From an uncultured Clostridium sp. (GTDB taxonomy: Bacteria; Bacillota_I; Bacilli_A; RF39; UBA660): a DNA stretch of 64,000 nt. The stretch is taken from contig CAJJPX010000001.1 in assembly GCA_905193755.1 (NCBI GenBank), positions 53,434 to 117,433 of the forward strand, written 5' to 3'. Positions 1 through 62,306 of the stretch are shown here, one piece after another. Each line of letters starts with the position of its first letter. Position 1 is the stretch's first letter. The notes beneath the pieces are model-generated. The model was not told the origin of the DNA. It saw only the letters and a list, made by a program, of their open reading frames with translations, and ran no database searches. Position numbers and translations under genes: made by a program.

Positions 1-1039
1 CATCAGTTCTCTCAGAATGACCTACACTATGTGTCATCTTTTCAACACTAATTAATAAATCTTGACTCTCTAAATCTTTAAGTAATTCTTCTCTACATTT
101 TTCACGAGACATTCCATTATATTTGCCAGTTTTCTCATTCATTGTAGCATCTTCATTCATAATTAGAATTCTCTCTAAATTATGTCTTTCACCTACTTCA
201 AAGTCATTAGGATCATGTGCTGGTGTAATCTTAACACATCCAGTACCAAACTCAGGATCAGCATGTTCATCACCTATAATTGGAATTAATTTATTAACAA
301 TTGGAAGTACTACATTCTTACCAATTAAATCTTTGTATCTTTCGTCTTTTGGGTTAACAGCAACAGCAGTATCTCCAAATAAAGTTTCAGGTCTTGTAGT
401 AGCTACATCTAAGTATTTATCACTTCCTTCAATAAAATATTTAATATGATAGAAAGCTCCTGGATCATCTTTATAAATAACTTCTTCATTTGAAAGAGCT
501 GTCTTAGCTACTGGATCCCAGTTAATAATCTTTTCACCACGATATATTAGTCCTTCATTATATAGTCTAATAAATACTTCATTAACTGCATCATTAAGAC
601 CTTCATCTAATGTAAATCTCTCACGTCTATAGTCCACACTAAGTCCTAAAGTTTCCCATTGTTTATGAATATTACTTCTATGTTCATCAGTCCATTTCCA
701 ACATTCTTTTAAGAATCCTTCACGACCAAGTTCATACTTATTAATACCGTTTTCTTTAAGTCTATTAACTACTTTAGCTTCAGTCGCAATAGCTGCATGA
801 TCCATTCCTGGAAGCCATAAAGTATCAAAACCCTTCATCTTTTTATATCTAATAATAACATCTTGAATACTACCATTAAGTGCATGACCTAAATGCAAAT
901 TACCTGTAACATTAGGTGGAGGTATAACTATAGTAAACGCATCTTTACTCTTATCTCCTGCATCAAAACAATGACTTTTAAGCCACATTTCATATTTTCC
1001 ATTTTCAACTTCTTTATGATTATATTTTTTATCAAGCAT
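1..1039 (-). CDS. valS: Valyl-tRNA synthetase, N-terminal ~346 aa; the gene continues past the window start
   Basis: Minus-strand translation from the ATG at 1037-1039 (RBS GGGAG upstream) gives [19 protein letters not shown]...[14 protein letters not shown]...[14 protein letters not shown], which are class I HIGH and ValRS signatures. The ORF runs off the window edge. Confidence 0.93.
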
Positions 1040-1778
1040 TATTTTCACACTCCCTTAAATACTTTTCTACCTCATCAAAATAAGGCTTAAATTTATCTTT
1101 ATTTTTTATATTTTCAAATATTCTATTATAATAACCTTTATCCAATAATAAACCTCTACTATAGTCATAATATAAATCAAAAGCAAATGATAATAAGAAT
1201 ATTATTTTGTCATTAACAGTTTTACAATTGACTCGTTTAACTGGTTCATGTAAATAAAACTCTTTCTTTACTTCTTCACTTATTTCACTATCATCTTCTT
1301 TAAGTTCTAAAAGTCTAATTGTAGAATTAGCATATATAATATCTAATTTATCAGCATCTCTTACTATCTTAGCATGCATCTTTTCACGTACAGTTAAATC
1401 ATCAGGTAATTCATATTTATTATGATATTTTATAGCTTTAGAAACTATATCATAGAATTCATCATCAAGTTTAAAGTTCTTAATTAAGCCTTTTTTAAAT
1501 AATAATTCTTCTCCTAAATCTCCATGATCAACTGTTTCAACATCACTAAATGATTTATATTTAGTCCATTGTTCAAATCTACCAAAATCATGAAGTAATC
1601 CAATTAAGCAAGTTAAGTAATTATCTTCTTCATCTAAATTTAATGTATATGATATCTCATCACATTGATGCATTACTCTATATGAATGATTGTATTTATA
1701 TGCAATCATATTCTCATTAAAATCAAAACCCATAACATACTTATCAAACTCATCAAAGTTTTCATTCATCTCATTCAT
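1032..1778 (-). CDS. HD-domain phosphohydrolase, co-transcribed with valS (8-nt overlap)
   Basis: HD motif (LLHDFGR ... RDADKLD). The likely ATG is at 1776-1778 with a GGAGG RBS 8 nt upstream. The ORF-track start at 1793 is a TTG alternative codon. Confidence 0.7.
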
Positions 1779-1795
1779 ACTTTTTTCCTCCAAAA

Positions 1796-2008
1796 TAAAA
1801 AGGTAATACCAAAGGACGAATTTATCGTGGTACCACCTTATTTTATACTCTATATATTTAACGCATATCTACGTAACTATTTACTTTATTCAATAGTTAA
1901 CTCCCAAGCTACCTTCATATATCTATCTTAAGAAAAGCTTTCACCCGATGACTTTTCATCTCTAATAATTAGTATATATTACTCCTCTTGTTCCTCGTTT
2001 TATAAAGT
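1796..2008 (-). promoter_or_regulatory. T-box riboswitch leader for the HD-valS operon
   Basis: Read on the minus strand it has an AGAGA...GUGAAAG stem I GA-motif and a candidate specifier region containing GUA (Val) followed by A. The conserved T-box AAGGUGGUACCACG (plus 1826-1837) overlaps an 11-bp terminator stem AAGGUGGUACC/GGUAUUACCUU followed by UUUUUAUUUU. Confidence 0.8.
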
Positions 2009-2010
2009 AG

Positions 2011-2039
2011 ATTATACAACCATATCTTTTATTTGTCAA
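2011..2039 (-). promoter_or_regulatory. Sigma-A-type promoter driving the T-box leader
   Basis: Minus strand TTGACA (2034-2039), 17-nt spacer, TATAAT (2011-2016). Confidence 0.7.
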
Positions 2040-2041
2040 CA

Positions 2042-2584
2042 TCAGTAGTTACTATCTTTAATATTGATAATACCACTAAATGTCTTTCCTTGATTATAAT
2101 TTTGGCTTTCATCTAAGTTTTTAAATGTTATCGTAATATTATATCTATGTTTTATACCTGGACTTATACTAACTTTACTTTTAATTGTTTCTTCACTTAC
2201 AGGCTGTTCTTCTATATTAGCACAACTTCCACTCATTATATCATTAGAATTCATACTATCACATATAGCACTAATAGTAAGTTCATCATTTGTTATTTCA
2301 TTATTATATTCTTTCCATATCAAATCATACACCGCATCTAATGTCCCTGTATTTTCTATAGTAACTGTTTTAGTGATAGTTTCACCTGGCTTAAAACCAT
2401 TTTTATAAATTAGAGGATTATCATCATTATATTTTAGTTCCAAAGTACCAGTAGTTACTTCTACTTCATCAGAATTATATGCAAATTCAGCACGAAAATA
2501 TCCATAAGTAAAGCCAACAGTGCCAATAAATATAAATAATAAAACAAAACCAAACATTATTTTCTCTTCTTTTTCCATTTTCAT
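2042..2584 (-). CDS. TasA/camelysin-like (M73-type) secreted protein, 180 aa
   Basis: N-terminal signal/TM with a SipW-type cleavage region (GFTYGYF). The segment TGTLELKYNDDNPL...NTGTLDAVYDL...NYNQGKTFSG is paralogous to the N-domain of the 7678-8958 protein. Confidence 0.6.
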   Translation of the reverse strand: MKMEKEEKIMFGFVLLFIFIGTVGFTYGYFRAEFAYNSDEVEVTTGTLELKYNDDNPLIYKNGFKPGETITKTVTIENTGTLDAVYDLIWKEYNNEITNDELTISAICDSMNSNDIMSGSCANIEEQPVSEETIKSKVSISPGIKHRYNITITFKNLDESQNYNQGKTFSGIINIKDSNY

Positions 2585-2869
2585 ATTATCACTATCTTCT
2601 ATATTTATAATAGCATACTTTATCGCTAATTAAAACATTTTTAAAAAGATATATAATTTAATTTTATAAAGAATTTATTCATCTATTCATTAATTTTCTC
2701 CTAGAAAAAAAAAGAATCTTAAGTATGTTTTATATACCAAAAATTCTATTTTACCTTTTTAACATAAATTTTAACATATGTTAAATTACTCATCGAAACG
2801 TTAAGGGCGTCATCTCAATATATTTAATTTAACTATTTTTTTAATTTTATTTTTTTATAAGGAGATGGT

Positions 2870-2968
2870 ATGTATATGAACAAGAAAAATGTATTAATTG
2901 CATCTTTGATTTTCATAATAATACTTTTAATTCTAGTTATTCTTATAATTACAATTAAAAACGCCTAA
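2870..2968 (+). CDS. Small hydrophobic single-TM peptide (32 aa), not in the ORF track
   Basis: An AAGGAG RBS lies 5 nt before the ATG. It encodes MYMNKKNVLIASLIFIIILLILVILIITIKNA and is followed immediately by a terminator hairpin. Confidence 0.35.
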   Translation: MYMNKKNVLIASLIFIIILLILVILIITIKNA

Positions 2969-2985
2969 CTCTCGTTAGGCCTCAC
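2963..2985. terminator. Bidirectional intrinsic terminator hairpin
   Basis: GCCTAAC-TCTC-GTTAGGC hairpin with T-runs on both strands. It ends the small peptide gene (+) and the 3096-3398 gene (-). Confidence 0.5.
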
Positions 2986-3095
2986 ACTTTTAAGTGATGG
3001 CGCCCTCAGGGGGTGCGTTTCACTAACAATAATATATCATATTTACAAGTCACAGTAAATATTTGAATAAGAAAAAATAACACTTATGTAAAGTG

Positions 3096-3398
3096 CTATT
3101 TTAATTCTCTCATATATGGCTTATCCATTATAGGTTTGTATTCTATTCTCTTTCCACAACAAGGACAATATTCTATAGGATAAAGTGTCTTTTTAACTTG
3201 AAAATTAACTTGATAATTTCCATCTAAGTCATAGTCCCCTTCATCAACTATTTCATCATTTACTAAACATAATTGTCCTTCTGTTACATCACTTGCGAAA
3301 TTAGAAAGAATAAAACCATCTCTATATTCACGAACAAAATCTATTATAAGAAATTTTGTCATACAATTACATAAATTCACATACTTAATTTTATCCAT
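3096..3398 (-). CDS. Hypothetical small protein with a C-terminal CPCCG zinc-ribbon-like motif
   Basis: 100-aa ORF immediately downstream of rbfA on the same strand. I recognise no family. Confidence 0.5.
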   Translation of the reverse strand: MDKIKYVNLCNCMTKFLIIDFVREYRDGFILSNFASDVTEGQLCLVNDEIVDEGDYDLDGNYQVNFQVKKTLYPIEYCPCCGKRIEYKPIMDKPYMRELK

Positions 3399-3409
3399 AA
3401 CCCACCTAA

Positions 3410-7677: not shown

Positions 7678-8958
7678 CTACTTTTTAGTAAAGTATCCAG
7701 GTAAATCGGTTCCACCATCTATTCTAGCGTATGTTTTATCAACATAAGAACTATTATATTTAGTACCATTTCCACCAACTAAATTAGTTGCTTCCTCAAA
7801 CATACCTGTACTACTAGTAACATTAGCAGTTATGAAATTATTACTTGCATATATAGTTTTTACTTTAGAATTATAAAACATAGCATACATGTTAATTACA
7901 TTACTCGTATCAAAACTACTTAAATCAAGTGTAGTGAACAAAGTATTTCTAAACATACTCCACATTTGTATTACTTTTGAGGTGTCTAGTCCTTCTAAGT
8001 TAATACTAGTAGCATTTGAATGATAAAATAAACCACTCATATCAGTCACATTTGAAGTATCAAGATTACTTAAATCTAAAGTACTTGCCTGAGAATAGCC
8101 AAACATACCAGATATACTTATAACATTAGAAGTATTCAATCTAGATAAATCTATATTACTAGCTTGACTTAATGCAAACATTCCTCCCATGTATATAACA
8201 GGTACATCATTAATATATGTACATACATCTTTAGTACTAACGTCTTCAGTAGATAATGGATTTGTTAAGGCAACTCCCCAACCAAGATCATCCATGTTTT
8301 TCCAATTAACAGTAAGTGTTGATGTATTAGCATCACTTTTTTCCTGCATATATCTATACGTATATATTCCATTTACATACTCAACACCTTGCGTTACTTC
8401 TCCATCAAAAGTGCAATTAACAACTTCAGGAGCATTCTCCACTCCTAAGACTCCACCAAACTTCTTTCCCTGATTATAATTCTGATCAGCACCTGTATCT
8501 TTAAAAGTAATAGTTAAATCATATTTATGCATTATATTTGGTTCAATAGAAATACTTTTTTTAATCTTTAGACTATTAATTGGAGTACTTACTATATTTT
8601 CACAAGTTCCATCTACTTCTTCAGTTGTGCCATTTATTCTAGTACAAGTTCCTTCAATTAACATTTCATCATTAATAATTTCATTTGTTAATTCTTGCCA
8701 TATAATATTATATTCAACATCTAAAGAACCGGTATTTTTAACAGTTATTGTTTTATTTATTGTATTTCCTGGTTTAATATTTTGTACATTTATCTCTGGT
8801 CCATCGGTATATGTAAGTTGTAATGTACCAGTTTCTACTACTTGATCTTTTACTTCATTTTGTACTATCGAATTACTAAAGTATGCATATGAAAATCCTA
8901 CACTAGCTAGGAATATAAATGCTAAAGTTATTCCAAATATTATTTTTTTATCTTTCAT
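7678..8958 (-). CDS. TasA/camelysin-like N-domain fused to BspA-type leucine-rich repeats; secreted
   Basis: The true start is MKDKKIIFGITLAFIFLASVGFSYAYF at 8956-8958 (RBS AGGTGATGA). The N-domain resembles TasA/M73 (TGTLQLTYTDG...NTGSLDVEYNIIW). The C-terminal half has repeated ~22-aa DLSxLDTSNVTxMxxMF units typical of BspA/Treponema-type LRR_5. Confidence 0.65.
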   Translation of the reverse strand: MKDKKIIFGITLAFIFLASVGFSYAYFSNSIVQNEVKDQVVETGTLQLTYTDGPEINVQNIKPGNTINKTITVKNTGSLDVEYNIIWQELTNEIINDEMLIEGTCTRINGTTEEVDGTCENIVSTPINSLKIKKSISIEPNIMHKYDLTITFKDTGADQNYNQGKKFGGVLGVENAPEVVNCTFDGEVTQGVEYVNGIYTYRYMQEKSDANTSTLTVNWKNMDDLGWGVALTNPLSTEDVSTKDVCTYINDVPVIYMGGMFALSQASNIDLSRLNTSNVISISGMFGYSQASTLDLSNLDTSNVTDMSGLFYHSNATSINLEGLDTSKVIQMWSMFRNTLFTTLDLSSFDTSNVINMYAMFYNSKVKTIYASNNFITANVTSSTGMFEEATNLVGGNGTKYNSSYVDKTYARIDGGTDLPGYFTKK

Positions 8959-8973
8959 ATCATCACCTATTTT

Positions 8974-9002
8974 ATTATAAAACGTACCCCCACCCCAGTC
9001 AA
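8974..9002 (-). promoter_or_regulatory. Sigma-A-type promoter for the camelysin-LRR gene
   Basis: Minus strand TTGACT (8997-9002), 17-nt G-rich spacer, TATAAT (8974-8979). Confidence 0.55.
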
Positions 9003-9100
9003 GCAAAAAGATGTTCGTACGTGACTCAATCAAAAATTCATTTAGCATTTATTTTATATAAAAAAAGAAGCTACTTTTTAAATAACTTCAATTTAATGTA

Positions 9101-10237
9101 TTATGAATAAGCAACAGCATATATAAATCCACAACTTTTTTTATTACCACTTTTTGGACTTGAACATCGTTTACTATAATCTTTATATTTACTATAAACT
9201 TGTTCTATAGTATAAGTTCCATTATTATTCTTATTAGCCGGGTCATGAACAACTACATTAGTTCCATTACCACCTAGTGCTATATAGTGCCCTGGTATTA
9301 AAAGTACAACTAGTTTTCCTTGATTCAACGCATTTGTTATAAGAGATGATTCTTTTTGATGAGTTGCAGAACTCTCATCATTATCATTCCTACCAAATAG
9401 TTTTTGAATCGTAACTCCATATTTTGAAGCAACTCTTTGATCAACAAGTGCAGCATCTGTTATAGCTCCACCACCAGTATTATTAGATATTTTTTGTCCA
9501 TAAACATAATCATGTACAGTTGATGGAGTTATATTACTATCTCTCTTTAAACCACTAAGTACCATCGCAAGTGATGTATAACCACAACCTGCATGACATA
9601 AGTCAGTTCCCATATATTTCTTTTCACTCCATCTAGAATCACATTGAGCATAATAAGGAAAATCAGTACTAGATGTACCACTAGTATCATAACTGCTTCC
9701 CCCACCAGTACCATCAGTACCAGCATACTTACTACTTTCTTCAGCAGCCTTTAATTCTTCTTGTATAATTTCATACATCGCATCAAGCCTATCCATATAT
9801 TCTTTTTTTACATCTTTATCTTTTATCTTTGAAGCAGCAGCAACAGCAGCATAATAATCAGTTAAACTCATATTCTCATCAGCCCTTGCTAATAAACTCT
9901 CAGTTTGTTTCAAATATGCATTATCAATATTTTCAGGAGTAGCACTATTCAAACAATCAATATAATTATTTTCTTCAGTACTTGAAACCTTTACTATAAC
10001 ATTAACAAGAGTTGGAACTAAAAACACACATATTGCTGCTATACACATATTTACTAAAGATTTCTTAGATTTCGTAAGTAAATCTTCATCTCCCACCTTT
10101 ATAGCTTTCATAAATGCTAACATTCCAGAAACTATAAGAATTATAGGAACAACAATTTTAATAATTAATATTATTGTATTAATAACACTAAATAATTCTA
10201 ATATTTCACCATTATCACAAATACCCAAAATATACAT
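9101..10237 (-). CDS. Membrane protein: pilin-like 2-TM N-module fused to a C39-like (papain-fold) cysteine peptidase domain
   Basis: The N-terminal ~90 aa (ICDNGEILELFSVINTIILIIKIVVPIILIVSGMLAFMKAIKVGDEDLLTKSKKSLVNMCIAAICVFLVPTLVNVIV) is paralogous to the N-termini of 60514-61614 and 62307-63356. The C-terminus has a Peptidase_C39_2-like pattern (YYAQCDSRWS...CHAGCGYTSLAMVLSG...VVLLIPGHYIALGG...VVHDP). RBS GGTGGTGA. Confidence 0.6.
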   Translation of the reverse strand: MYILGICDNGEILELFSVINTIILIIKIVVPIILIVSGMLAFMKAIKVGDEDLLTKSKKSLVNMCIAAICVFLVPTLVNVIVKVSSTEENNYIDCLNSATPENIDNAYLKQTESLLARADENMSLTDYYAAVAAASKIKDKDVKKEYMDRLDAMYEIIQEELKAAEESSKYAGTDGTGGGSSYDTSGTSSTDFPYYAQCDSRWSEKKYMGTDLCHAGCGYTSLAMVLSGLKRDSNITPSTVHDYVYGQKISNNTGGGAITDAALVDQRVASKYGVTIQKLFGRNDNDESSATHQKESSLITNALNQGKLVVLLIPGHYIALGGNGTNVVVHDPANKNNNGTYTIEQVYSKYKDYSKRCSSPKSGNKKSCGFIYAVAYS

Positions 10238-10347
10238 AAGTTCACCACCATTATTAATTAAATTATAACAAAATATAACAAAATTTAAAATGTTTTATTG
10301 AAATTATAAAATGTTTTTGTTAGTATAAATAATCAAAGAGGTAACAA

Positions 10348-12216
10348 ATGACTAATTATGATTTATATGAAAGTGTCAACGATGAAACAAAAAAATATCT
10401 AGATATGGTATTTTCTTTATTAAGATATTTTAATGAGAATGGAGATAATATTGAAGATGATGAAATATTACCTTTTTCATTCTTCTTAGCTGGTCTTAAA
10501 ACTGATGAATTTGTGAAAGATACTTTTGAAAGATTTGGAATTACTTTTGATAATTGTTTTCACTATTTAGAAGATGAAAAAGTTCCTTTTGAACTTAGAA
10601 GTGCTCTTGAAACTGAAGAATTTACTACATACAATTTAGAAGATATTTATAGAATAATATTATCAGAAATTAAAAACGATTATTATTTAGAAGATAAAGA
10701 TATTAAATATTCAGATCTTGAACCATATCAATTATTTGATTATATGTTGACTATGTATAATGAAAAAGTATCTAACTTATTAAGAGATACTAATGATATA
10801 GATGATTTTACTGATACTAGTGATTTCTTTGAATACACTACTTATAGAGAAGACAAATTTATAGAGTTTGCTCATAAATTCGGAGTAGACATTGAAGAAC
10901 TTGCTCATAGTGAAAGTATCAAAGAATATCATAGTGATAGATTTAATATCATATATGATGATGGAAGAATGTATTTATTTTCAAACAATGGTAAAAAGCA
11001 AGATATAGCTACATATCAATTTGAAGATGGTATTATTACTCTAGGAAGAAACACTGAAATAATTAAGATAAATGATAAATTAATTACTAGAAAGAATTTT
11101 GAAGAATTATTAAGTATATTACAGGAAAGTAAAAAACCTATTAAATTTACCACTTATGATATAGATAAAAAATGTGAAAAATCATTTAAAGTATTAAGAG
11201 AAGAATTATTTGGAAGTGATAAAATGGAAGATGTAACAGAGAAATATAAAGACAATAAAGAAGTTATTTATAGTATGGATAGTAAAACACCTAATCTTGA
11301 TAAATATGGAAAAGATTTAACAAATATGTCTTATATAAAAGACCCCTCTATTGGAAGAAAAAATGAATTAGATAGAATTATGAAAATACTTTTATATCCT
11401 GAAAGAGATAAATCTATTATTATAACTGGTGTAGCTGGTTGTGGTAAAACTGCTTTAGTAAGAGGTCTTGCTTATAGAATTAAAAATGGTGATGTACCTG
11501 CTCCTTTAAAGAATTTAAGAATAATAAGTATAGATACTGCTACTATGGTAGCTGGTACTAAATATGTAGGAACTCTAGAAGAAAAAATGAAAAGGATTCT
11601 AGAAGAAGCAAGTGAAGACAAAAATATAATTTTATTTATAGATGAAATACACCAAGCTATATCTGGTGGTAAAAGTGAAGGAAATGATAATACAGTAGCT
11701 GAAATACTAAAACCATATTTAGATTATGGAAGTGTAAGAGTTATAGGTGCTACAACTGAAGAAGAATATGCTGAACATATAGAAAGTAACACTGCATTTA
11801 AAACAAGATTTAAAAAAGTTGCAATAAAAGAACCAGATTATAACACAACTTATCAAGTACTAGATGATCTAATTAACGCATATAACAAAATTAGTTATTC
11901 TAAACTTAACGTAAGTGACACTGAAAGACACATGATTATAGATTGGTTAATTAATTCAACAAATGCAAGTTTTAGAGATTATAGAGATAGAGCAAGTAAT
12001 CCAAGATTAGTATTAGATATATTAAAAGAAGCATATGCTATTGCAGCATTTAACGAAAGTGAAGATGTAACTATAGATCATATAATTGAAGCATTAAAAA
12101 ATGAAGATAGACTTTACGAAAGTTCTAGAGAAAGACAAGCACAAATCTTAAAAAATATGAAACCAAAACCAAGAAGTGAATGTAAAATATTAGAATTCAA
12201 ACCTAGAGCTAAATAA
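10348..12216 (+). CDS. Clp-family AAA+ ATPase with a single D1-type module and an unusual ~330-aa N-terminal region
   Basis: The C-terminal half matches ClpA/B/C D1: DPSIGRKNELDRI, Walker A GVAGCGKT, Walker B ILFIDEIH, sensor IGATT, ...AFKTRFKKVAIKEP. There is no D2 module. The N-terminus has possible degenerate Clp_N-like repeats. Confidence 0.7.
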   Translation: MTNYDLYESVNDETKKYLDMVFSLLRYFNENGDNIEDDEILPFSFFLAGLKTDEFVKDTFERFGITFDNCFHYLEDEKVPFELRSALETEEFTTYNLEDIYRIILSEIKNDYYLEDKDIKYSDLEPYQLFDYMLTMYNEKVSNLLRDTNDIDDFTDTSDFFEYTTYREDKFIEFAHKFGVDIEELAHSESIKEYHSDRFNIIYDDGRMYLFSNNGKKQDIATYQFEDGIITLGRNTEIIKINDKLITRKNFEELLSILQESKKPIKFTTYDIDKKCEKSFKVLREELFGSDKMEDVTEKYKDNKEVIYSMDSKTPNLDKYGKDLTNMSYIKDPSIGRKNELDRIMKILLYPERDKSIIITGVAGCGKTALVRGLAYRIKNGDVPAPLKNLRIISIDTATMVAGTKYVGTLEEKMKRILEEASEDKNIILFIDEIHQAISGGKSEGNDNTVAEILKPYLDYGSVRVIGATTEEEYAEHIESNTAFKTRFKKVAIKEPDYNTTYQVLDDLINAYNKISYSKLNVSDTERHMIIDWLINSTNASFRDYRDRASNPRLVLDILKEAYAIAAFNESEDVTIDHIIEALKNEDRLYESSRERQAQILKNMKPKPRSECKILEFKPRAK

Positions 12217-12277: not shown

Positions 12278-13519
12278 ATGAAAGAAAAAGTAATAATGAG
12301 TATAGATTTAAAAAGCTTCTTTGCTTCTTGTGAATGTGTTAGTCGTGGGCTTGATCCATTCACTACTCCCTTAGTGGTCGCAGACATTTCACGTGGACAG
12401 GGTGCTATGACTTTAGCGGTCACTCCATATTTAAGAAGTAAAGGAGTAGATTCTAGAAGTAGAGTTTTTGAATTACCTAAGAATATTAAAATTATATTTG
12501 CTAAACCAAGAATGAAATTATATGAAACTTATAGTAATAAAGTAAGAGAAATATTTAAGAGTTTTATAAGTGAAGAAGATATACACATCTACTCTATTGA
12601 TGAAGTATTTATGGATGTAACAGACTATTTAAAATATTACAAAATGACTGACATAGAACTTGCTAAAACAATAATGAAAACCATTAAAGATAAAACAGGT
12701 CTTACTTCTACTTGTGGTATCGGACCAAATATATTCTTATCTAAAGTTGCTATGGACATAGAAGCAAAACATAATAAAGAATTTATTGCTAAATGGACCT
12801 ATAATGATATAGAAACAAAACTACAGAATTTAGAACCTTTAAGCTCTGTCTGGGGAATTGGAAAAAGAACTGAAAAGAAACTGAACAATCTTGGGATTAA
12901 AAAAATAAAAGATATAAACAACTACACAAGAGATTTCTATATAAAAAGATTTGGTAATGTAGCTGGTAATGATATATGGTGTAAAGCAAATGGAATAGAT
13001 TTTACTACTATAAAAGATTTAAATGAGCGTGAGAGAGAAAAATCTATAAGTATGAGTCAAATATTATATAGAGACTACACTGTAGATGAAGCAATACTAA
13101 TCGTAAAAGAAATGAATGACATGCTTAGTAATAAACTTAGAAGAATGAATAAAACCACTAAACTAGTATATTTAGGTATTAACTATTCAAGAGATTTATG
13201 TAAAAGATTTAAAGAAACAATTCTCTTAAATGAAAGTGAAGACATACCTGAAAGAATATATGAAGTTCTACAATACATCTATTATAAAAATGTAGAGAAT
13301 CTACCAATTAGAAAAGTAACAATAGCGTATTCTAGACTAAATGACAAAAGATGCACACAACTAAGTCTATTTGAAAACAACATAATTGAAACAGACGAAT
13401 ATCATAAAGCAATAGACAAAATAACTGAAAGGTTTGGAGGAACATCTATACTAAGAGCATCCTCTTTACTTAAAAATTCAACAATAAAAAATAGAGAAAA
13501 ATTTAAAAATATAATTTAA
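12278..13519 (+). CDS. Y-family (DinB/UmuC-type) translesion DNA polymerase
   Basis: SIDLKSFFASCE (catalytic Asp), IYSIDEVFMDVT, and STCGIGPNIFLSKVAMD...KHNKEFIAKW (GIG...K motifs). The likely start is MKEKVIM after an AAAGGTG RBS. Confidence 0.8.
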   Translation: MKEKVIMSIDLKSFFASCECVSRGLDPFTTPLVVADISRGQGAMTLAVTPYLRSKGVDSRSRVFELPKNIKIIFAKPRMKLYETYSNKVREIFKSFISEEDIHIYSIDEVFMDVTDYLKYYKMTDIELAKTIMKTIKDKTGLTSTCGIGPNIFLSKVAMDIEAKHNKEFIAKWTYNDIETKLQNLEPLSSVWGIGKRTEKKLNNLGIKKIKDINNYTRDFYIKRFGNVAGNDIWCKANGIDFTTIKDLNEREREKSISMSQILYRDYTVDEAILIVKEMNDMLSNKLRRMNKTTKLVYLGINYSRDLCKRFKETILLNESEDIPERIYEVLQYIYYKNVENLPIRKVTIAYSRLNDKRCTQLSLFENNIIETDEYHKAIDKITERFGGTSILRASSLLKNSTIKNREKFKNII

Positions 13520-14535
13520 ATTCTTCTCTTTTTAACATTATCTCTATAATAAGGCATTAAACCAATCTTATTCTTAGAAAACATTGGTAATTGAGCAAAT
13601 ATATAATCATCCCATAAATTAGCATTTATTAAATATACTTTTTTATCTGATATTACAAAATTCCATTCTATCTCAAGTGATTCATCAAATTCCTTAGCAC
13701 ATTCTTTAGCAATCTTTTTAATTTCTTCATAAAAAGGTATTTCTAAATTAACAAGCTTAACTTTACTAATTGGATGTTCATTATAAAGTTCATCTTCTCC
13801 ATATACAAGTTTATGTTTTATTACCCCACTCTTCACATCAACTAAACCAGTTAAATGCTTAACGGAATTAACATCATACTTATATTCTTTTTCAATACCA
13901 AATTTTACATAAGAAGAAACTATATCTACTTTATTACCACATAAAAGCGTAACAATACTAACAGTATTCATATTATATGGATTGATACTATCAAATAATT
14001 TATTTTGTTTTATACTTGGTTCAACAATATTTAAATTGTTTTTCTTAGCTTTATCAAGCAAAAATGCAGGACTTCTAAAATCTTTAACATTCAGTACTAA
14101 TGTATTACTTTCTCCTTTAAGATTATTACTTCTACAAGTAAGCTCTTTCTTTTTAAGCGCTAACTCTTCAAATTCTTTAAAACTAAGTTCTTTAATATTA
14201 TAGTATTCTCTATTCAAGCAATCATTAAATTTAATATAAAATTTAATTCTATTATTTAAAATAACTAAATGCTTAACATCACATAAATAATTTTCTAAGT
14301 TTTGATGTCTACACTTACTCATATAAGTATCTCTTTTAAAACCAGGTAATAAATAAAACTCAAATATTCTATATTCATCGTAGTCAACACCATATCTTAC
14401 ATAACTCCACCACATATCAAAAAACAATACTATTGAACTTTTATTGCATTTCTTTTTAATAAGATTGATACTACGATTAATACCCTTAATATTCTTTTTT
14501 AAATAATTTAAAAATTTATTTAACTCATTCTTCAT
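13516..14535 (-). CDS. ATP-grasp protein, TupA-like (sugar-transfer-associated ATP-grasp)
   Basis: N-terminal DMWWSYVRYGVDYDEYRIFEFY pattern characteristic of ATPgrasp_TupA, ~340 aa. Assigned by recalled motif only. Confidence 0.5.
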   Translation of the reverse strand: MKNELNKFLNYLKKNIKGINRSINLIKKKCNKSSIVLFFDMWWSYVRYGVDYDEYRIFEFYLLPGFKRDTYMSKCRHQNLENYLCDVKHLVILNNRIKFYIKFNDCLNREYYNIKELSFKEFEELALKKKELTCRSNNLKGESNTLVLNVKDFRSPAFLLDKAKKNNLNIVEPSIKQNKLFDSINPYNMNTVSIVTLLCGNKVDIVSSYVKFGIEKEYKYDVNSVKHLTGLVDVKSGVIKHKLVYGEDELYNEHPISKVKLVNLEIPFYEEIKKIAKECAKEFDESLEIEWNFVISDKKVYLINANLWDDYIFAQLPMFSKNKIGLMPYYRDNVKKRRI

Positions 14536-14660
14536 AATATCCCACTCGTGTTTATACCATAATTATATATTTTTTTTATTAAAATGGCAAGTTACTCGCT
14601 TGACTACAATAATTTGATACATTATAATAATATTTAAATCACATTTTAGGGGGATACATA

Positions 14661-16157
14661 ATGGAAAAAGAAGTTTTAGTATTTATATACAAAAGAAAAA
14701 GAGTTAAAGCAAACGATGAAGTTGAAAGTTATACATATGAACCATCAGAAATACTTCATGGAAAAGAAATAAATTATGATGGAAATAGAATATTTATGGA
14801 TGATTCAGAAAAATTTAATTATCCATTCATAGATGATATATATAATTTTGATGAAGAATATGTTTATGCATTTCCAGCATACTTAGAAAATTTATCAGAA
14901 GGACAAAAAGACAAACTAAAAAAAACATTAAAACGCGAAATAGAAGATTATGATAAACACTTATTATTCCAGTTATATACTCCAGGTGAAGCATCAGTTG
15001 AAACATTCGCATCAGATGATGGATTAGAAACTCAAATAAGCATAAATCCAGATAGTTATGAAGGCTTCGAAGAAATGGTTAATAGCGATTATACTAAAGA
15101 AGTTAAAAGACTTAAAGAAGAAATATCAATCACAGAAAAAGAATTAGACAAAAAACAAAAAACAAAAGTTCCTACCATAATAGTACCTAAAGTAATATAC
15201 GCAGATGAACTATACAAATCAGTAAGTAAAACAGTAATATGTCAAGATGAACAAATTAAAAAAATAGCTACTTCAGTAGCAAAAAATCAAAGATTACAAG
15301 ATACCAGTTTGAAATCAAACATGCTAGTATGTGGACCTACTGGTGTTGGTAAAACAGAAATATTTAGAACAATAAGTAAAAAGACAAATCTACCTATAAC
15401 CATAGAAGACTCAACAGAATATACAGCAGCAAGCTATAAAGGTAAAGATGTAAGCGAAATGCTACTTCATTTATACGAAAACTCAGGTAAAGATATAGAA
15501 AGAGCACAAAGAGGAATTGTAGTAGTAGATGAAATAGATAAAAAAGTATCTAAAGGAGATCATGCTACATTCACATCAGCTGTCATACAATCATTACTTA
15601 AAATGATGGAAGGACATAAATATCAATTAATATCACCAGATGACAAAGAAATAATAATATTTGATACATCAAAACTAACATTTGCATTCTTAGGAGCATT
15701 CTCAGGAATAGAAGAATATTCAAGAACTAAAAGAGGTATTGGATTTACTACTCCTAAAGATGAATCACAAGATAACAAAGAAATATTCAATAATGAAACA
15801 CTTAAGAAATTTGGATTACTCCCAGAATTCGTTGGTAGAAATGATAATATAGTAGTTATGAATAGTCTAGATACTAATGAATACATGAGAATCATAAAAG
15901 AATCAGATAAAAGTCAATTATTACTATATAAAAAGTTCTTTGAATCTATTGGAATAGACTTTAAATACGATGAAAAAACTATAGAAGAAATAGCTATAGA
16001 AGCTAAAAAACTAGGTATAGGTGCAAGAGGTATTAAAAGAATAGTAGAAAATGCTTTAGAAGTAGCAAACTACTATGCTTTGTCAGAAGGTCAACATAGA
16101 GAACTAATCATAAGTCCAGAAACAATACATGATAGTAAACAATACATACTAAAGTAA
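14661..16157 (+). CDS. ClpX-paralogous AAA+ unfoldase with a novel ~200-aa N-domain replacing the zinc-binding domain
   Basis: Walker A GPTGVGKT and Walker B GIVVVDEIDK. The pore and IGF loop region is LTFAFLGAFSGIEEY...RGIGFTTP, followed by LLPEFVGR and a GARGIKRIVENAL sensor II. RBS AGGGGGA. Confidence 0.8.
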   Translation: MEKEVLVFIYKRKRVKANDEVESYTYEPSEILHGKEINYDGNRIFMDDSEKFNYPFIDDIYNFDEEYVYAFPAYLENLSEGQKDKLKKTLKREIEDYDKHLLFQLYTPGEASVETFASDDGLETQISINPDSYEGFEEMVNSDYTKEVKRLKEEISITEKELDKKQKTKVPTIIVPKVIYADELYKSVSKTVICQDEQIKKIATSVAKNQRLQDTSLKSNMLVCGPTGVGKTEIFRTISKKTNLPITIEDSTEYTAASYKGKDVSEMLLHLYENSGKDIERAQRGIVVVDEIDKKVSKGDHATFTSAVIQSLLKMMEGHKYQLISPDDKEIIIFDTSKLTFAFLGAFSGIEEYSRTKRGIGFTTPKDESQDNKEIFNNETLKKFGLLPEFVGRNDNIVVMNSLDTNEYMRIIKESDKSQLLLYKKFFESIGIDFKYDEKTIEEIAIEAKKLGIGARGIKRIVENALEVANYYALSEGQHRELIISPETIHDSKQYILK

Positions 16158-40445: not shown

Positions 40446-40796
40446 CTAATCTCTTATTTTAAATATTAAAGTAACAATAAAAGCACAAACTATTGCTATA
40501 CTAATACCTCCAGAAGAATTAACTAGTATGCCCTTAAAGAGTCCCATAAAACCACCTTCTAAGTATCCATCACTTGCTCCAGTAACAAGTAAATGTCCAA
40601 AATTCATAATTGGTATACTTGCCCCACCTTTAAAAATATCTAATAATTTATCATAAATTCCAAATCCAGATAAAACACAACCAGTTATAACAAGTATTGT
40701 ATTCATGTGTCCTGGAGTAAATTTTGTTTTTTCTAAAATATATTGAGACATAGCACAAACAAAACCACAAAATAAGAATGCTAGTAAATATGTCAC
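40446..40796 (-). CDS. spoVAEb: Stage V sporulation protein AEb
   Basis: 116-aa membrane protein and the last gene of the spoVAC-AD-AEb unit. Confidence 0.8.
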   Translation of the reverse strand: MTYLLAFLFCGFVCAMSQYILEKTKFTPGHMNTILVITGCVLSGFGIYDKLLDIFKGGASIPIMNFGHLLVTGASDGYLEGGFMGLFKGILVNSSGGISIAIVCAFIVTLIFKIRD

Positions 40797-41764
40797 TCTA
40801 ACACCTCCAAACTTACAGCATGACTAACTCCTGGCATAGCTACTTTTTGATTTGAACTTATAACCGAATGTAAAGAACCTGTACCAACAACTAATATTTT
40901 TTTATATTTATTTAAAGGTAAAATGTAATCAAAAAGTGTTAAAGGTAAACATAAAGGTCCACTTCCACCAGCATATATATTATCTTCAGTATATATTATA
41001 CTTCCAGAGTCTATAACATTATCTAAGTTTACTTTATATTTCTTCTTATAATACATCTGCATAATCTTAGTTCCATAAATACCTAAGTCGCCAGTAAGTA
41101 TTAAATCATAATATTTATAATTTCTTCCAGTGCTTTCTAAATGAGCATGTATAACTTCTGCACAAGAAGGTGCCATAGCACTACCCATATCATTAGCATC
41201 TTTATGATTAGTTTGAGTAACATATCCAAAAGTACCACTTTCTACTCTTAAATTACTTTTTTCATTACTTAAAAGTACACTTATGCTTCCACTTAATGTA
41301 CAAGTATTAACCATCTTACGAAGTGCACCATATTCAATAGGAAATCTAAACTGTTTTTCACTTACTAAGTTATGACCAGAAACTGTAACAATAGTACTTT
41401 TATTTTTATTATCTATTATGTTAGCACCTATAATTATTCCTTCTACAAACGTAGCACAAGCACTATAAATAGTACAACTAGGAATCTTAAATTTACATGA
41501 TGCAAGACTACTCGCAAGACATTGATTTTGTAAGTCACCACTAATAAGTAAATCAACTTCTTTAGTAAGTTTCTTACTCTTCATAAGTAACCCCTTAATA
41601 GTAGTTTCTTGATACTTACATTCAGCAAGCTCTATACTTTTTTCATTAACATAATAGTCATCAACCACTTTATCAGGATTATTCATAACTATAGGTTTAT
41701 ATTTAGTAGATGCAAGAAGTGAAAATTTATCATTGATATATACATTATTAAAATAGTATGTCAT
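40793..41764 (-). CDS. spoVAD: Stage V sporulation protein AD (thiolase-like fold)
   Basis: 323 aa with the characteristic SpoVAD sequence (GLLMKSKKL...ISGDLQNQ...CATFVEGIIIGANII). Confidence 0.88.
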   Translation of the reverse strand: MTYYFNNVYINDKFSLLASTKYKPIVMNNPDKVVDDYYVNEKSIELAECKYQETTIKGLLMKSKKLTKEVDLLISGDLQNQCLASSLASCKFKIPSCTIYSACATFVEGIIIGANIIDNKNKSTIVTVSGHNLVSEKQFRFPIEYGALRKMVNTCTLSGSISVLLSNEKSNLRVESGTFGYVTQTNHKDANDMGSAMAPSCAEVIHAHLESTGRNYKYYDLILTGDLGIYGTKIMQMYYKKKYKVNLDNVIDSGSIIYTEDNIYAGGSGPLCLPLTLFDYILPLNKYKKILVVGTGSLHSVISSNQKVAMPGVSHAVSLEVLE

Positions 41765-42222
41765 AGTATCACACTCCTTACAAATCCAAATATTATTCCA
41801 AAAAGTACTCCATATAATATAATACTTCCCGTAAGCTTGAATATCGAAGCACCTATTCCCTTTATAAATCCTTCACTCTTAGCATCCATTGCACTACTTG
41901 TCATTGTATTCGCAAACCCTGTAGCTGGCACAATAAGTCCACATTTGAATACACTAAGTACTTTATCAAAAATACCAAATCCAGTAAGTACTGAACCTAT
42001 CACTATAAATGTTGAAAAAGTATAAAAGCTCGCATCACTTAAAGTAATATTAAATACTTTAAAATAAAATTCACACATAACTTCAGCAATTATACCAACC
42101 ACTCCACCACTAAAAAAAGCAATCATTACATTTTTTAATATACTTTCTTTTCCTATAACACTACTAACTAACTTGTCATATTCTTTATTATTCATTTTGT
42201 CACCTACACTTATTTTTACCAT
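41761..42222 (-). CDS. spoVAC: Stage V sporulation protein AC
   Basis: 153-aa polytopic membrane protein with a typical SpoVAC sequence. Confidence 0.85.
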   Translation of the reverse strand: MVKISVGDKMNNKEYDKLVSSVIGKESILKNVMIAFFSGGVVGIIAEVMCEFYFKVFNITLSDASFYTFSTFIVIGSVLTGFGIFDKVLSVFKCGLIVPATGFANTMTSSAMDAKSEGFIKGIGASIFKLTGSIILYGVLFGIIFGFVRSVIL

Positions 42223-42496: not shown

Positions 42497-43831
42497 ATGT
42501 GGAGATTTATTGTTATTCTTGCATGCAAACTTACAAACAAACTTAGTAAAATAACTGGACATGAAGGAAGTGTTATTGGAGGAAAAGTAGCTCGTAAACT
42601 TGATAAAAATATACTTAAGAAAATCAAGCTTCCTAAATATGTAATTGGTATAACAGGTTCAAGTGGTAAAAGTAGTTCAACTGAACTTACTTATAATATA
42701 CTAACTAAAAACGGATATACTGTTGTTTACAACAAAGAAGGGAGTAACACTATTAATGGTATAACTTCTCTAATACTAAATAACTCATCGTTATCTGGAA
42801 AACTTAAAAAAGATGTTTTATTAATGGAACTTGATGAACAATTCATGAAATATATATTTGAGTATATAACACCTACTCATTTAATGATTACAAATATTAC
42901 AAGAGACCAACCACCAAGAAACTCTCACCCAGAAAAAATATATAATGCTATTAAAAATGCAATACCTGCTGGAACTCATTTAATACTTAATGTAGACGAT
43001 CCATTCGTAAATAGAATTAGAATCAATCACAAAGGTGAAGTTACTACATATGGTATGACAGAAAATAACTATTCAAGAAAAAGCAATCTTAATAATTTAG
43101 ATGCAGCTTACTGCCCTATTTGTAATTCTAAACTTGAATATGATTTTTATCACTATGGACACATTGGATCATACCACTGTCCTAAATATCATTTCAATCG
43201 TGGTAAACCAAATTATGAAGCAAAAGAAATAGACGTAGATAATGAACAAATTAAAATAAATGATAATATTATTCACCTACCATCAAACTTCTTATATACA
43301 GTATACTTTGTAACTGGTTGTTATGCCTTAGCTCATGAAATAGGAATTAAAGAAGAAGATATATTAAAAGTATTAAATGATGAAAATATTAAGACTAAAA
43401 GAATGGAAATATATGACTTTGATAATAGAAAATGGCAAATGTTAGTAAGTAAAAACGAAAATAACTTAAGCTACAAACAATCACTAGATTATATATTACA
43501 TCAAGAAGGAGACAAAACAATAATACTTGGTTTTGACTCCTCAAGTAGAAGATATAAAGAAAATGATATATCATGGATATGGGATATAGACTTTGAGTCT
43601 CTAAACGACTCAAGTATCAAAAATATAATATTGATTGGTAAATTCTGTTATGATATGAAAGTTCGTATGGAGTACGCTGGTATACAAAAAGATAAAATAA
43701 TTTTAGTAGAAAACTTAGATAATTTAAGTAAAACAATTAAAACTAAAACAACTGGTAAAATATTCTCAATGGTATGTTTTGATAAAGAAATTGAACTTAA
43801 AAAGATTATAAAGGAGGAAAATAATGATTAA
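42497..43831 (+). CDS. murT: Lipid II isoglutaminyl synthase, Mur-ligase-like subunit MurT
   Basis: Mur ligase P-loop GITGSSGKSS, and the MurT-specific Cys cluster CPICNSKLEYDFYHYGHIGSYHCPKYHF. The partner gatD is downstream. Confidence 0.88.
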   Translation: MWRFIVILACKLTNKLSKITGHEGSVIGGKVARKLDKNILKKIKLPKYVIGITGSSGKSSSTELTYNILTKNGYTVVYNKEGSNTINGITSLILNNSSLSGKLKKDVLLMELDEQFMKYIFEYITPTHLMITNITRDQPPRNSHPEKIYNAIKNAIPAGTHLILNVDDPFVNRIRINHKGEVTTYGMTENNYSRKSNLNNLDAAYCPICNSKLEYDFYHYGHIGSYHCPKYHFNRGKPNYEAKEIDVDNEQIKINDNIIHLPSNFLYTVYFVTGCYALAHEIGIKEEDILKVLNDENIKTKRMEIYDFDNRKWQMLVSKNENNLSYKQSLDYILHQEGDKTIILGFDSSSRRYKENDISWIWDIDFESLNDSSIKNIILIGKFCYDMKVRMEYAGIQKDKIILVENLDNLSKTIKTKTTGKIFSMVCFDKEIELKKIIKEENND

Positions 43832-60513: not shown

Positions 60514-61614
60514 CTATCCTATGCAATCTTTTATTTTAGAATATATAAATTCATACCCTTTTTTATTATAATGAATTGAATCTGTACTTATATATGAACT
60601 ACTCCATTTATCTAATGTTGCTTTAGAATAAACATCACAATACTTAGTATTTTCAAGTCCAGATATACAAGAACTAATTTGTTTATTAAATGTTTCTATA
60701 TTAGCATTTTTAGCATAAAGGCTTCCACTATCACGAACTGGATTAACACTAACTACATAAACTTTATTTTTAGAGTTAACACTATTTATAAATGATTTAT
60801 ACTTTTCACAATATTTGCTTAAATTTCCCATGTCATTAACTCCATAATTTAAAACTATATTATAACTTTTACCATCACTTAAATAACCATTAACTGTACT
60901 TATGTGACTTACAAAATCATTATATCCCCCACCATCTTTAGCAACAACTTTATCACTAGATGGTAGTCCTGAATTATTTTTTAAACCATTAGTTCTAGAA
61001 TCTCCCATAAATATGGTACCAGCTACAGTACCAACATTAGTACTACTATCATTTGTATTGTTCGTATTATTACTATTGTTATCACCACTAGTATTTTCAC
61101 TACCATTAGTACTAGAATTATTATCAGAAGAATTTCCTTTACTTTCTATTTCCTTAATTAAAGAATCTAATCTACTTTGATACCCTTTCTTTTTTTCTGT
61201 ATCTTTAACTGCATTAACAGCATTCACTGCATTTGAATAATCCTCAATTTTCTTAGAAGTTTCAGCCTTAGACAACAATTCTTCAGCTCTCTTTTCATAA
61301 GAATCATCAATGGTAGAACTAGAAGTACTCAAACAATCTCTATATTCATTATTAGGATCAGAAATTGTAACAAGAACATTAACAAGAGTAGGAATCATAA
61401 ACACACATATTGCAGCTATACATTTAGTTATAAAAGACTTCTTTGCTTTTGAAAGTAAATCTTCATCACCAACTTTAATAGATTGCATAAAAGTAATCAT
61501 ACCAGTAAGAATAAGAATAATTGGCACAACTATTTTAATAATTAGTATTACTATATTTATAACTCTCATAAGTTCTAACACTTCAGGTACAGAACAAATA
61601 GATTGAATTAACAC
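60514..61614 (-). CDS. Membrane protein: pilin-like 2-TM N-module + N/S-rich linker + SGNH/GDSL hydrolase domain
   Basis: The N-terminus (VINIVILIIKIVVPIILILTGMITFMQSIKVGDEDLLSKAKKSFITKCIAAICVFMIPTLVNVLV) is paralogous to 9101-10237 and 62307-63356. The C-terminus has SGNH blocks (IFMGDSRT ... NYGVND ... DSIHYN). Confidence 0.6.
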   Translation of the reverse strand: MLIQSICSVPEVLELMRVINIVILIIKIVVPIILILTGMITFMQSIKVGDEDLLSKAKKSFITKCIAAICVFMIPTLVNVLVTISDPNNEYRDCLSTSSSTIDDSYEKRAEELLSKAETSKKIEDYSNAVNAVNAVKDTEKKKGYQSRLDSLIKEIESKGNSSDNNSSTNGSENTSGDNNSNNTNNTNDSSTNVGTVAGTIFMGDSRTNGLKNNSGLPSSDKVVAKDGGGYNDFVSHISTVNGYLSDGKSYNIVLNYGVNDMGNLSKYCEKYKSFINSVNSKNKVYVVSVNPVRDSGSLYAKNANIETFNKQISSCISGLENTKYCDVYSKATLDKWSSSYISTDSIHYNKKGYEFIYSKIKDCIG

Positions 61615-61625
61615 TATATCATCCC

Positions 61626-62297: not shown

Positions 62298-62306
62298 ACT
62301 CTTCTC

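Follow-up and report, generated by a model that had tools for sequence, protein, structure and literature searches.

This analysis concerns a gene at 9101..10237 on the minus strand of a 64,000-nucleotide stretch of contig CAJJPX010000001.1 from an uncultured Clostridium sp. The whole stretch is called the window, its numbering is used throughout, and L-numbers denote loci of relatives. The gene encodes a protein of 378 amino acids (aa) in which a Peptidase_C39_2 domain, the head, follows a two-helix membrane hairpin resembling the VirB2-like pilins of type IV secretion systems (T4SS). We think that the protein is probably, at a rough probability of 0.55, a membrane-tethered and outward-facing cysteine peptidase, which would cut an amide bond of peptidoglycan and serve the remodelling of the cell's own wall. 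All functional readings given here are based on sequence, predicted structure and gene context. The gene has the following parts (TM, transmembrane helix; pLDDT, predicted local distance difference test).

9101..10237, minus strand: whole gene, stop codon included, for the 378-aa pilin-module, stalk, linker and C39_2 peptidase protein (open reading frame and sequence)
9983..10237, minus strand: residues 1-85, N-tail (MxILxIC) and two-helix membrane hairpin, a T4SS/VirB2-like pilin module (Pfam, phmmer, model, charge)
within 9983..10237, minus strand: TM1 at about residues 16-42, Lys-rich loop 43-63, TM2 64-83
10217..10219, minus strand: codon of Cys7, invariant, predicted outside the membrane (alignments A2, A4, A5, A6 and A8)
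9953..9955, minus strand: codon of Cys95, invariant, directly past TM2 (alignments)
9725..9982, minus strand: residues 86-171, predicted extracytoplasmic helical stalk (model helices and conservation)
9665..9724, minus strand: residues 172-191, Gly/Ser/Thr-rich flexible linker (sequence, pLDDT)
9104..9664, minus strand: residues 192-378, Peptidase_C39_2 catalytic head with a predicted papain fold (Pfam PF13529, model, Foldseek, hhalign)
9644..9646, minus strand: codon of Gln198 (CAA), predicted oxyanion-hole residue (invariant in A4)
9584..9586, minus strand: codon of Cys218 (TGT), predicted catalytic nucleophile in GCGYTSLAM (invariant in A4)
9287..9289, minus strand: codon of His317 (CAC), predicted catalytic base in PGHYIAL (invariant in A4)
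9242..9244, minus strand: codon of Asp332 (GAC), predicted third member of the triad in VHDP (Asp332 and Pro333 invariant in A4)

The main argument for the C39 head acting on the wall is the company of wall-hydrolase heads in which its anchor is found. Searching with the full-length protein yielded 65 relatives, none of them named, whose heads are C39_2, M23, GDSL_2, VanY, M15_4, glucosaminidase or without a Pfam match. A genome scan, with one genome per species and an alignment of 16 closer sequences, gave 139 relatives. From these 75 loci were kept, all from uncultured gut metagenome-assembled genomes and with several copies per genome; their bin labels are mostly Bacilli, Tenericutes, Mollicutes, Erysipelotrichaceae or "Clostridium sp. 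CAG:1000", and a few are other or uninformative. With a profile of the N-terminal module, a full HMMER pass over 1.84 billion cluster representatives gave 9,766 matches (E <= 0.001), 3,696 of which reach E <= 1e-10. The module is always N-terminal among the 150 best matches, whose lengths are 94-674 aa. In the 93 of these with a length of 300 aa or more, the heads are M23 (11/93), C39_2 (9/93), alpha/beta-hydrolases of the S9, BD-FAE or Esterase type (about 8-14/93), GDSL (7-10/93), CHAP (6/93), M15_4 (5/93), NlpC/P60 (4/93), NAGPA (4/93), glucosaminidase (2/93), VanY (1/93) and Amidase_5 (1/93). Clustering of 130 proteins separated at least 10 head types, the most populous being C39_2 with 43 sequences. 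The heads on the hairpin anchor are essentially a catalogue of cell-wall lytic domains. With thousands of clusters and every major type of wall hydrolase on one anchor, the family is an obvious candidate for wall cutting in such uncultured gut Bacilli, and its recognition would give a useful annotation for abundant bacteria of the human and animal gut.

Modular phage endolysins and autolysins show the same mix and match of M23, CHAP, NlpC/P60, M15_4, glucosaminidase, Amidase_5 and C39_2. There, however, the partner is a wall-binding domain (LysM, SH3 or CW_7), whereas the constant module of the fusions described here is a membrane hairpin with a stalk. Full-text literature searches found no description of pilin-hydrolase fusions, and the family is apparently undescribed. 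Its closest functional analogues are the modular lysins and the Gram-positive VirB1-type hydrolases, none of which has a pilin hairpin as the constant module.

The sequence-only reading of the gene had recognised a Cys/His papain-fold C39_2 pattern, and this is borne out. Pfam Peptidase_C39_2 (PF13529) matches residues 192-334 with E 7.4e-10 and 40 bits against a cut-off of 24, spanning profile positions 2-143 of 143; it is also matched by 15 of 34 members of the hairpin-fusion family, besides the 9 of 93 given above. The motifs quoted in that reading, QCDSRWS, CHAGCGYTSLAMVLSG, GHYIALGG and VVHDP, were all located in the 378-aa protein. All 22 aligned homologues, the most distant with 26% identity, have Q198, C218, H317 and D332, so that the Cys/His pair on which the earlier claim had been staked extends to a Gln-Cys-His-Asp set. 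The same alignment has further conserved Cys in the head, of the kind typical for exported proteins. The gene is not a pseudogene in relatives, which was the other way in which the claim could have failed: 378 aa is the full length in most listed members of the 90% cluster (a few have 392 or 315), and an identical protein, P0001, is found also on contigs up to 475 kb. The start codon is ATG, and GGTGGTGA precedes it.

In the AlphaFold2 model, built on the 22 homologues and with a mean pLDDT of 77.7, residues 192-378 form a compact alpha/beta unit, most blocks of which have a pLDDT of 85-95. The best Foldseek matches of the model are staphopain 1pxv (E 0.02, probability 0.99), Josephin deubiquitinases and the C39 domain of PCAT1; all these matches are weak yet within the papain clan. 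The sole result of a search of the PDB with the family profile was 3ERV, a putative C39-like peptidase of B. anthracis (E 0.24). With the C39_2 domain of SpoIID-C39 proteins encoded in the T4SS-like clusters described below, the head aligns in hhalign with a probability of 91% and E 1e-6, the catalytic motifs being in register. The Cys218 motif is in register with GCEVTSLAMML of 3ERV and HGCGPSSMAI of the T4SS-cluster domain, the His317 motif with GGHYIVL of the latter, and D332/P333 with VADP and IRDP of the two. The Gln...Cys...His...Asp order is that of Peptidase_C39_2, examples of which are 3ERV and domain N5 of mycobacteriophage LysA (listed in PMC3314691), and the GC-x-x-TSLAM and H-x-x-x-L...DP motifs of 3ERV align with the head. 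Sequence similarity to 3ERV is nevertheless very low, and the head differs from both references in its 20-residue Gln-Cys spacing, in an extra conserved Cys pair and in being joined to a pilin-like hairpin and stalk. The catalytic domains catalogued for Gram-positive phage lysins also include C39_2 (PMC8223927). With the C39 domains of PCAT proteins (PF03412) the head has in common the predicted papain fold, the Cys/His/Asp triad and the upstream Gln. It is predicted to be external and has no transporter, whereas the PCAT domains cleave Gly-Gly leaders in the cytoplasm as part of an ABC exporter.

The N-terminal module had been called pilin-like, and this can be made specific: judged by its profile matches, the anchor belongs, as a divergent member, with the VirB2-like pilin hairpins of T4SS (PF18895) and not with type IV pilins. 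In the gene's protein the Pfam T4SS_pilin profile matches residues 16-81 with 20 bits, under the cut-off of 26.6, and sub-threshold matches occur in 22 of 34 family members (best E 1.3e-5). Since the protein stays under the cut-off, its homology to pilins is supported transitively, via stand-alone homologues. A hidden Markov model (HMM) of the module, residues 1-165, was run on all open reading frames (ORFs) of the relatives' loci and splits these into close loci, with module-plus-head proteins of 330-700 aa, and distant loci with short stand-alone proteins. The latter have 97-190 aa, stand in tandem arrays of three to five and are matched at E 1e-13 to 1e-25; two of them exceed the T4SS_pilin cut-off (31.6 and 26.7 bits vs 26.6). 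About 100 short proteins are retrieved by the module profile, some 20 of them with a precomputed PF18895 annotation, and single stand-alone pilins of T4SS-like clusters match the gene's protein in phmmer at E 2e-15, 4e-12 and 3e-10. Common to fusions and stand-alone pilins are the IIKIVVPILLI helix, an acidic/basic loop, Pro75 and the Cys pair.

In the distant loci, which belong to sister lineages, the pilin arrays lie directly upstream of a conserved T4SS-like gene set. It encodes a TrbL/VirB6-like protein of the MMCAP2_0566 / Mbov_0396 / pLS20_p028 family, a VirB4 ATPase as two ORFs (best match "VirB4_plasma" of Mycoplasma integrative and conjugative elements (ICEs), 347 bits), a CHAP or SpoIID+CHAP hydrolase, an LppM-like lipoprotein and a SpoIID+Peptidase_C39_2 protein; the cluster of L083 adds a VirD4-like coupling protein, and a VirB11/TadA-like ATPase gene stands upstream of the entire set. 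At least 16 loci show this linkage of stand-alone homologues to T4SS genes. According to a 2025 review (PMC12857230), Gram-positive T4SSs lack VirB2, with Patescibacteria as the exception, while here pilin arrays stand beside VirB6, VirB4 and VirD4 in many uncultured Bacilli. Among the NCBIfam models there is one for Mycoplasma ICEs named "pilin-like conjugal transfer protein". With the PF18895 pilins of Patescibacteria, for which tandem arrays of divergent copies have also been described, and with the pilin-like conjugal transfer protein Mbov_0395 of Mycoplasma ICEs (NF045849) the anchor shares the two-helix hairpin and its charged cytoplasmic loop, and its homology to the stand-alone pilins arrayed beside VirB6 and VirB4 is supported at E 1e-10 to 1e-25. 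It also has the two hydrophobic helices of such pilins with a short charged loop and, in the predicted topology, with both ends outside. In its profile score, in its size (378 aa vs about 70-190 aa), in having a stalk and an enzyme, in lacking a cleaved leader and in lacking linkage to T4SS genes, the protein differs from pilins. The hairpin of VirB2-like pilins appears to have been reused as an enzyme anchor, and through the fusions the role of VirB2-like proteins in monoderm bacteria becomes open to concrete study.

Gram-positive VirB1-type hydrolases are encoded inside transfer operons; one TM or a signal anchor holds them in the membrane, and their domains are SLT, CHAP or NlpC/P60. The likeness of our protein to PrgK of pCF10 (cited in PMC12857230), TcpG, CwlT and TraG of pIP501 lies in being membrane-anchored, outward-facing, modular and linked to T4SS in evolution. 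In contrast, its gene is chromosomal and linked to housekeeping genes, it does not lie inside a T4SS or transfer cluster, and the product combines a pilin hairpin with a C39_2 head.

Modelled helices 10-48 and 51-85 pair as a hairpin. The net charge is -3 in the N-tail, which consists of 15 conserved residues, +2 in the loop between the helices and -3 in the segment after TM2. By the positive-inside rule this pattern gives the predicted topology, with both the N-terminus and the C-terminus of the hairpin outside (N-out/C-out), the Lys-rich loop in the cytoplasm and the head extracytoplasmic. Cys7 and Cys95 are invariant in every alignment made, including that of 93 representatives at 50% clustering, and we infer a Cys7-Cys95 disulfide that staples the outer ends of the hairpin. 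Stand-alone T4SS pilins likewise have one Cys before TM1 and one after TM2, and they end soon past the latter. The stalk of about 85 residues is common to the whole fusion family and absent from stand-alone pilins; it is modelled as helices 91-98, 101-122, 125-136 and 141-171, and its residues I104, A131 and L151 are conserved in at least 90% of the 93 representatives. The Gly/Ser/Thr-rich linker that had been seen before the head coincides with a segment predicted to be disordered (residues 168-191, pLDDT about 31-32), and its length varies among orthologues. Fusions have no signal peptide, the gene's protein beginning at the tail MYILGIC, whereas stand-alone homologues carry Sec-type leaders.

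The following mechanism is proposed. The hairpin would insert N-out/C-out with its Lys-rich loop in the cytoplasm, and Cys7 and Cys95 would staple its two outer ends. Stalk and flexible linker would place the C39_2 head within a thin wall or slightly above it. There Cys218 would attack the scissile carbonyl, with His317 and Asp332 as the base and Gln198 making the oxyanion hole, and the bond cut would be a peptidoglycan amide in the stem peptide or in a cross-link. The enzyme and its paralogues may in this way remodel the cell's own wall for growth, for septation or to make room for surface fibres. The anchor would have been taken over from T4SS pilins, the secretion machine being no longer needed.

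Two paralogues with other heads are encoded near the far end of the window, with an LppM-like gene between them.

62307..63356, minus strand: same N-module with a VanY (M15) head (PF02557, 65.7 bits)
61626..62297, minus strand: LppM-like lipoprotein of 223 aa with a C-terminal TM helix (phmmer)
60514..61614, minus strand: same N-module with an SGNH/GDSL_2 head (PF13472, 30.3 bits, just below the cut-off of 32.9)

That the three genes have the same N-module and different heads had been proposed, and the alignments agree. Over the first 96 aligned codons the gene is 63-72% identical to the two paralogues in protein and 73-77% in DNA. In tblastn the module has exactly three copies in the 64-kb window (E 6e-39 and 8e-33) and the C39 head has one; sharing of the N-module among the three ORFs, as judged from these alignments, is far beyond chance. 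The modular shuffling that had been suggested is real across the family, with its many head types, and is ancient in this genome. Alignment of the N-modules at the nucleotide level, which had been suggested for dating the duplication, indicates that it is old: identity at third codon positions is 55-66% at 26.3% GC, near saturation, and the longest identical run among the three is 29 nucleotides. Recent duplication or gene conversion is rejected on these two figures. The N-modules are closest to those of orthologues with the same head (70-73%), and paralogues come next (62-71%). Near-saturation and grouping by head indicate that the fusions are older than the sampled species and that no recent gene conversion occurred. 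As for the paralogue site, in L022, a relative with 68% identity, the region syntenic with 60514..63356 has the VanY/LppM-like/SGNH cluster replaced by one headless pilin module of 126 aa (L022 10001..10381), between a 491-aa ORF and trmL. In L041 the module and an M23-like head are on two separate ORFs.

Inheritance of the C39 gene is vertical, and its place among housekeeping genes is fixed. Eight genomes, the most distant with 54% identity, have it between a 622-aa ClpA/B-like AAA gene and rimP-nusA-infB. Downstream of it in the window come a gene for a TasA/camelysin and DUF285/PARCEL protein and then rimP-nusA-ylxR-infB-rbfA; the location at the edge of the nusA-infB operon and the camelysin neighbour with leucine-rich-like repeats, both pointed out before, were therefore found again, the repeats being of the DUF285 type. 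Adjacency of the neighbour is not obligatory (5 of the 8 syntenic genomes). Relatives of the gene were found neither in IMG/VR (2.9 million viral contigs) nor in the plasmids searched, and plasmid carriage is rejected. Two further features belong to this locus.

7678..8958, minus strand: surface protein with a TasA/camelysin N-domain and DUF285/PARCEL repeats (PF12389, PF03382, TIGR02167)
10262..10289, minus strand: promoter-like site 5' of the C39 gene, TTTAAA, 16-nucleotide spacer and TG-extended TATAAT (consensus scan, 10/12 matches)

The promoter-like site is weak evidence, the scan having given 27 sites vs 22 expected at 26% GC. The TasA-DUF285 ORF (456 aa) is probably 30 codons too long, its true start being Met31 at 8958, because AGGAG stands before Met31, a typical signal peptide follows from it and a promoter-like site (TTGACT-17-TATAAT, 9002..8974) lies inside the extension (8958..9048, minus strand). 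A Gly-Gly leader in this protein was considered and rejected: the "WGGG" lies upstream of Met31, in the promoter-like region.

Some properties of the host are also relevant here. The window contains genes for SpoVAC, SpoVAD and SpoVAEB-like proteins and for MurT (together at 40446..42222, minus strand, and 42497..43831, plus strand), from which the host, with a GC content of 26.3%, is taken to be walled and probably spore-forming. Judging from the bin labels of its relatives, it may belong to one of the uncultured Bacilli orders RF39, RFN20 and ML615J-28. The common ancestor of RFN20, RF39 and ML615J-28 has been predicted to have lost most penicillin-binding proteins and lyt/cwl endopeptidases, and for RF39, ML615J-28 and the RFN20 family CAG-631 incomplete synthesis of peptidoglycan precursors has been predicted, so that they may need scavenged muropeptides (PMC10868615, Field et al.). 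A lineage-specific replacement set of wall hydrolases fits the predicted loss of autolysins, if the host belongs to these orders.

Several points weigh against the view of the protein as an anchored enzyme for the cell's own wall. Likeness of the head to solved structures is weak (E 0.02 in Foldseek, E 0.24 with 3ERV by sequence), and no well-characterised peptidoglycan-cleaving member of PF13529 was found. In the 93 representatives the N-tail and TM helices have an entropy of 1.4-1.5 bits vs 2.3-2.4 for the loop and stalk; such conservation seems to go beyond the need of a plain anchor and hints at a specific partner or self-assembly. In addition, the gene between the window's two other paralogues is homologous to the LppM-like gene found 3' of the hydrolases in T4SS-like clusters (phmmer E 7.8e-18 with p229 of L075 and 5e-18 with p249 of L083), which means that a functional tie to the T4SS machine may persist. 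The fusion may then still serve a T4SS-like machine, encoded in another part of the genome, as a pilin-like subunit or as a client, with its hairpin recruited by VirB6/VirB4 or co-assembling with stand-alone pilins and its head opening the wall of its own or of a contacted cell. We give this a minor chance. It would account for the conserved N-tail and TM helices, the most conserved parts of the family, for the LppM-like gene and for the homology of the hairpin to pilins whose arrays immediately precede VirB6 and VirB4; CHAP and SpoIID+C39_2 enzymes are also products of these clusters, the latter with the C39_2 domain that aligns with the head at 91% probability. Fusions of a pilin with GDSL_2 (L055) and with NlpC/P60 (L060) also exist outside the main fusion group, in genomes from stand-alone-pilin loci. 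Yet neither the 64-kb window nor the flanks up to 10 kb from about 47 fusion loci showed a VirB4, VirB6 or other T4SS gene, the housekeeping locus is fixed in 8 genomes, and fusions are without the signal peptide that stand-alone pilins have. A C-terminal load of 290 residues would, moreover, be hard to pack in a pilus, as far as the known F and T pilus structures tell. A stronger form of the same idea, which we find doubtful, has the fusions as functional VirB2-type subunits that are inserted into, or passed on by, a T4SS-derived apparatus of these gut Bacilli with reduced genomes, an enzyme-studded filament or channel that breaches contacted walls while LppM-like proteins shield the producer. 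If this were true, the purpose would be acquisition of DNA or muropeptides, or killing, and the essential pilin-bearing T4SS of epibiotic Patescibacteria would have here its Gram-positive counterpart, armed with enzymes on its pilins.

Foreign peptidoglycan could also be the substrate, for scavenging of muropeptides by a bacterium with a reduced genome and deficient wall synthesis or for antagonism of neighbours, with the LppM-like proteins being protective and immunity-like. The head set of peptidases, glycosidases, SGNH and alpha/beta esterases does resemble that of antibacterial effectors and lysins, pairs of a hydrolase and an LppM-like protein recur (in the window, in L018, L047, L053 and L056, twice in L082 and in T4SS-like clusters), and the muropeptide need predicted for RF39, ML615J-28 and CAG-631 would be served (PMC10868615). 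We consider this unlikely, however, as the C39 gene of the window has no LppM-like partner, one LppM-like family goes with many unrelated heads, unlike specific immunity proteins, and a tethered enzyme would reach only about the length of its stalk from the cell. The locus shows no variability in the style of polymorphic toxins either, and the C39 orthologue, with its 43 sequences, is the most conserved member. Processing of a leader or pro-peptide of a secreted protein, for instance TasA-DUF285, as done by true C39 proteases, is quite unlikely. The head does belong to the papain-fold C39 clan, 3 of 34 members weakly match PF03412, and TasA-like genes stand directly beside fusions in about four arrangements; but TasA-like neighbours also accompany non-protease or non-cysteine heads (alpha/beta-hydrolase, M15_4), TasA-DUF285 is absent beside the C39 gene in 3 of the 8 syntenic genomes, and its signal peptide is an ordinary SipW-type one, the "WGGG" being in the promoter region. 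A true bacteriocin-processing C39 (PF03412 / PCAT) was rejected: there is no ABC domain or transporter fusion in the protein or its neighbours, and no bacteriocin-like or Gly-Gly-leader gene nearby. An origin from a prophage lysis cassette, with a holin-like two-TM module and an endolysin or with a signal-anchor-release lysin, would explain a two-TM N-terminus followed by a lysin-type domain, and C39_2 does occur in phage lysins. It is effectively refuted, however, by the absence of relatives from the 2.9 million viral contigs, by flanks with housekeeping synteny in 8 genomes and no phage genes, and by a hairpin homologous to T4SS-cluster pilins and not to holins.

Regarding the other neighbours of the C39 gene, the AAA gene (10348..12216, plus strand) is divergent from it, encodes a single ClpA/ClpB-type AAA module with an N-terminal region of 300 residues and holds its position in all 8 syntenic genomes. 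The site past rbfA is variable (window 1793..3400 vs L076 16839..20041, L023 10559..13249 and L002/L004). In the window and in L001 it has a TasA-like gene of 180 aa alone, five genomes (L002-L005 and L076) have this gene together with an M15_4 pilin fusion and a 250-aa gene, and L023 has a second C39-like fusion with a TasA-like gene of 181 aa.

LppM-like genes stand directly 3' of fusions with at least 5 head types and of each hydrolase in T4SS-like clusters, and the L075 paralogue of the lipoprotein matches PF21946 LppM. The protein could be an inhibitor, an immunity protein or a scaffold. Those found after fusions are the following.

L018 11105..11746: LppM-like gene
L047 9684..10304: LppM-like gene
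L053 11230..11904: LppM-like gene
L056 11185..11799: LppM-like gene
L082 11031..11750 and 14035..14715: two LppM-like genes

Fusions also occur in tandem, at L026 999..6931, L031 734..3234, L081 10001..13214 and L082 10001..15697, which recalls the pilin arrays. Four follow one another in L026, esterase and esterase+NlpC/P60 being among their heads, and in L082 three fusions are interleaved with the LppM-like genes. About 8 kb from these three, at 220..621 (minus strand) and 752..2335 (plus strand), L082 has a type IV prepilin-like gene (MKKGFTLVELV...) beside a T2SSE ATPase and a DUF87 ATPase gene.

The T4SS-like cluster was seen in many uncultured gut Bacilli (L050, L054, L057, L059, L061-L068, L070, L072-L075, L083 and L084). 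Two examples are given.

L075 1542..20029: T4SS-like cluster
L083 4253..20294: T4SS-like cluster

The genes come in the order VirB11/TadA-like ATPase, two membrane proteins, p324, 2-5 divergent VirB2-like pilins, TrbL/VirB6-like protein, split VirB4, CHAP or SpoIID+CHAP, LppM-like lipoprotein, SpoIID+C39_2 and, in L083, VirD4-like protein. No relaxase was seen in the stretches of these clusters examined, and the L083 cluster is flanked by the housekeeping genes rpmE, rpiB, spoIID and mreB. At its edge there is a thioredoxin/PedC-like gene (L083 4253..4684, minus strand; also L084 356..787, minus strand), which is compatible with disulfide formation in Cys-bearing pilins. The two VirB4 ORFs (L075 12807..13406 and 13403..15190) have the same arrangement in 16 loci; in every locus they overlap and encode about 180-210 aa and 594-595 aa. 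The large part is highly conserved and abundant, with more than 7,225 database proteins at E < 1e-30, and its best 120 matches are nearly all 594-597 aa long and 81-100% identical.

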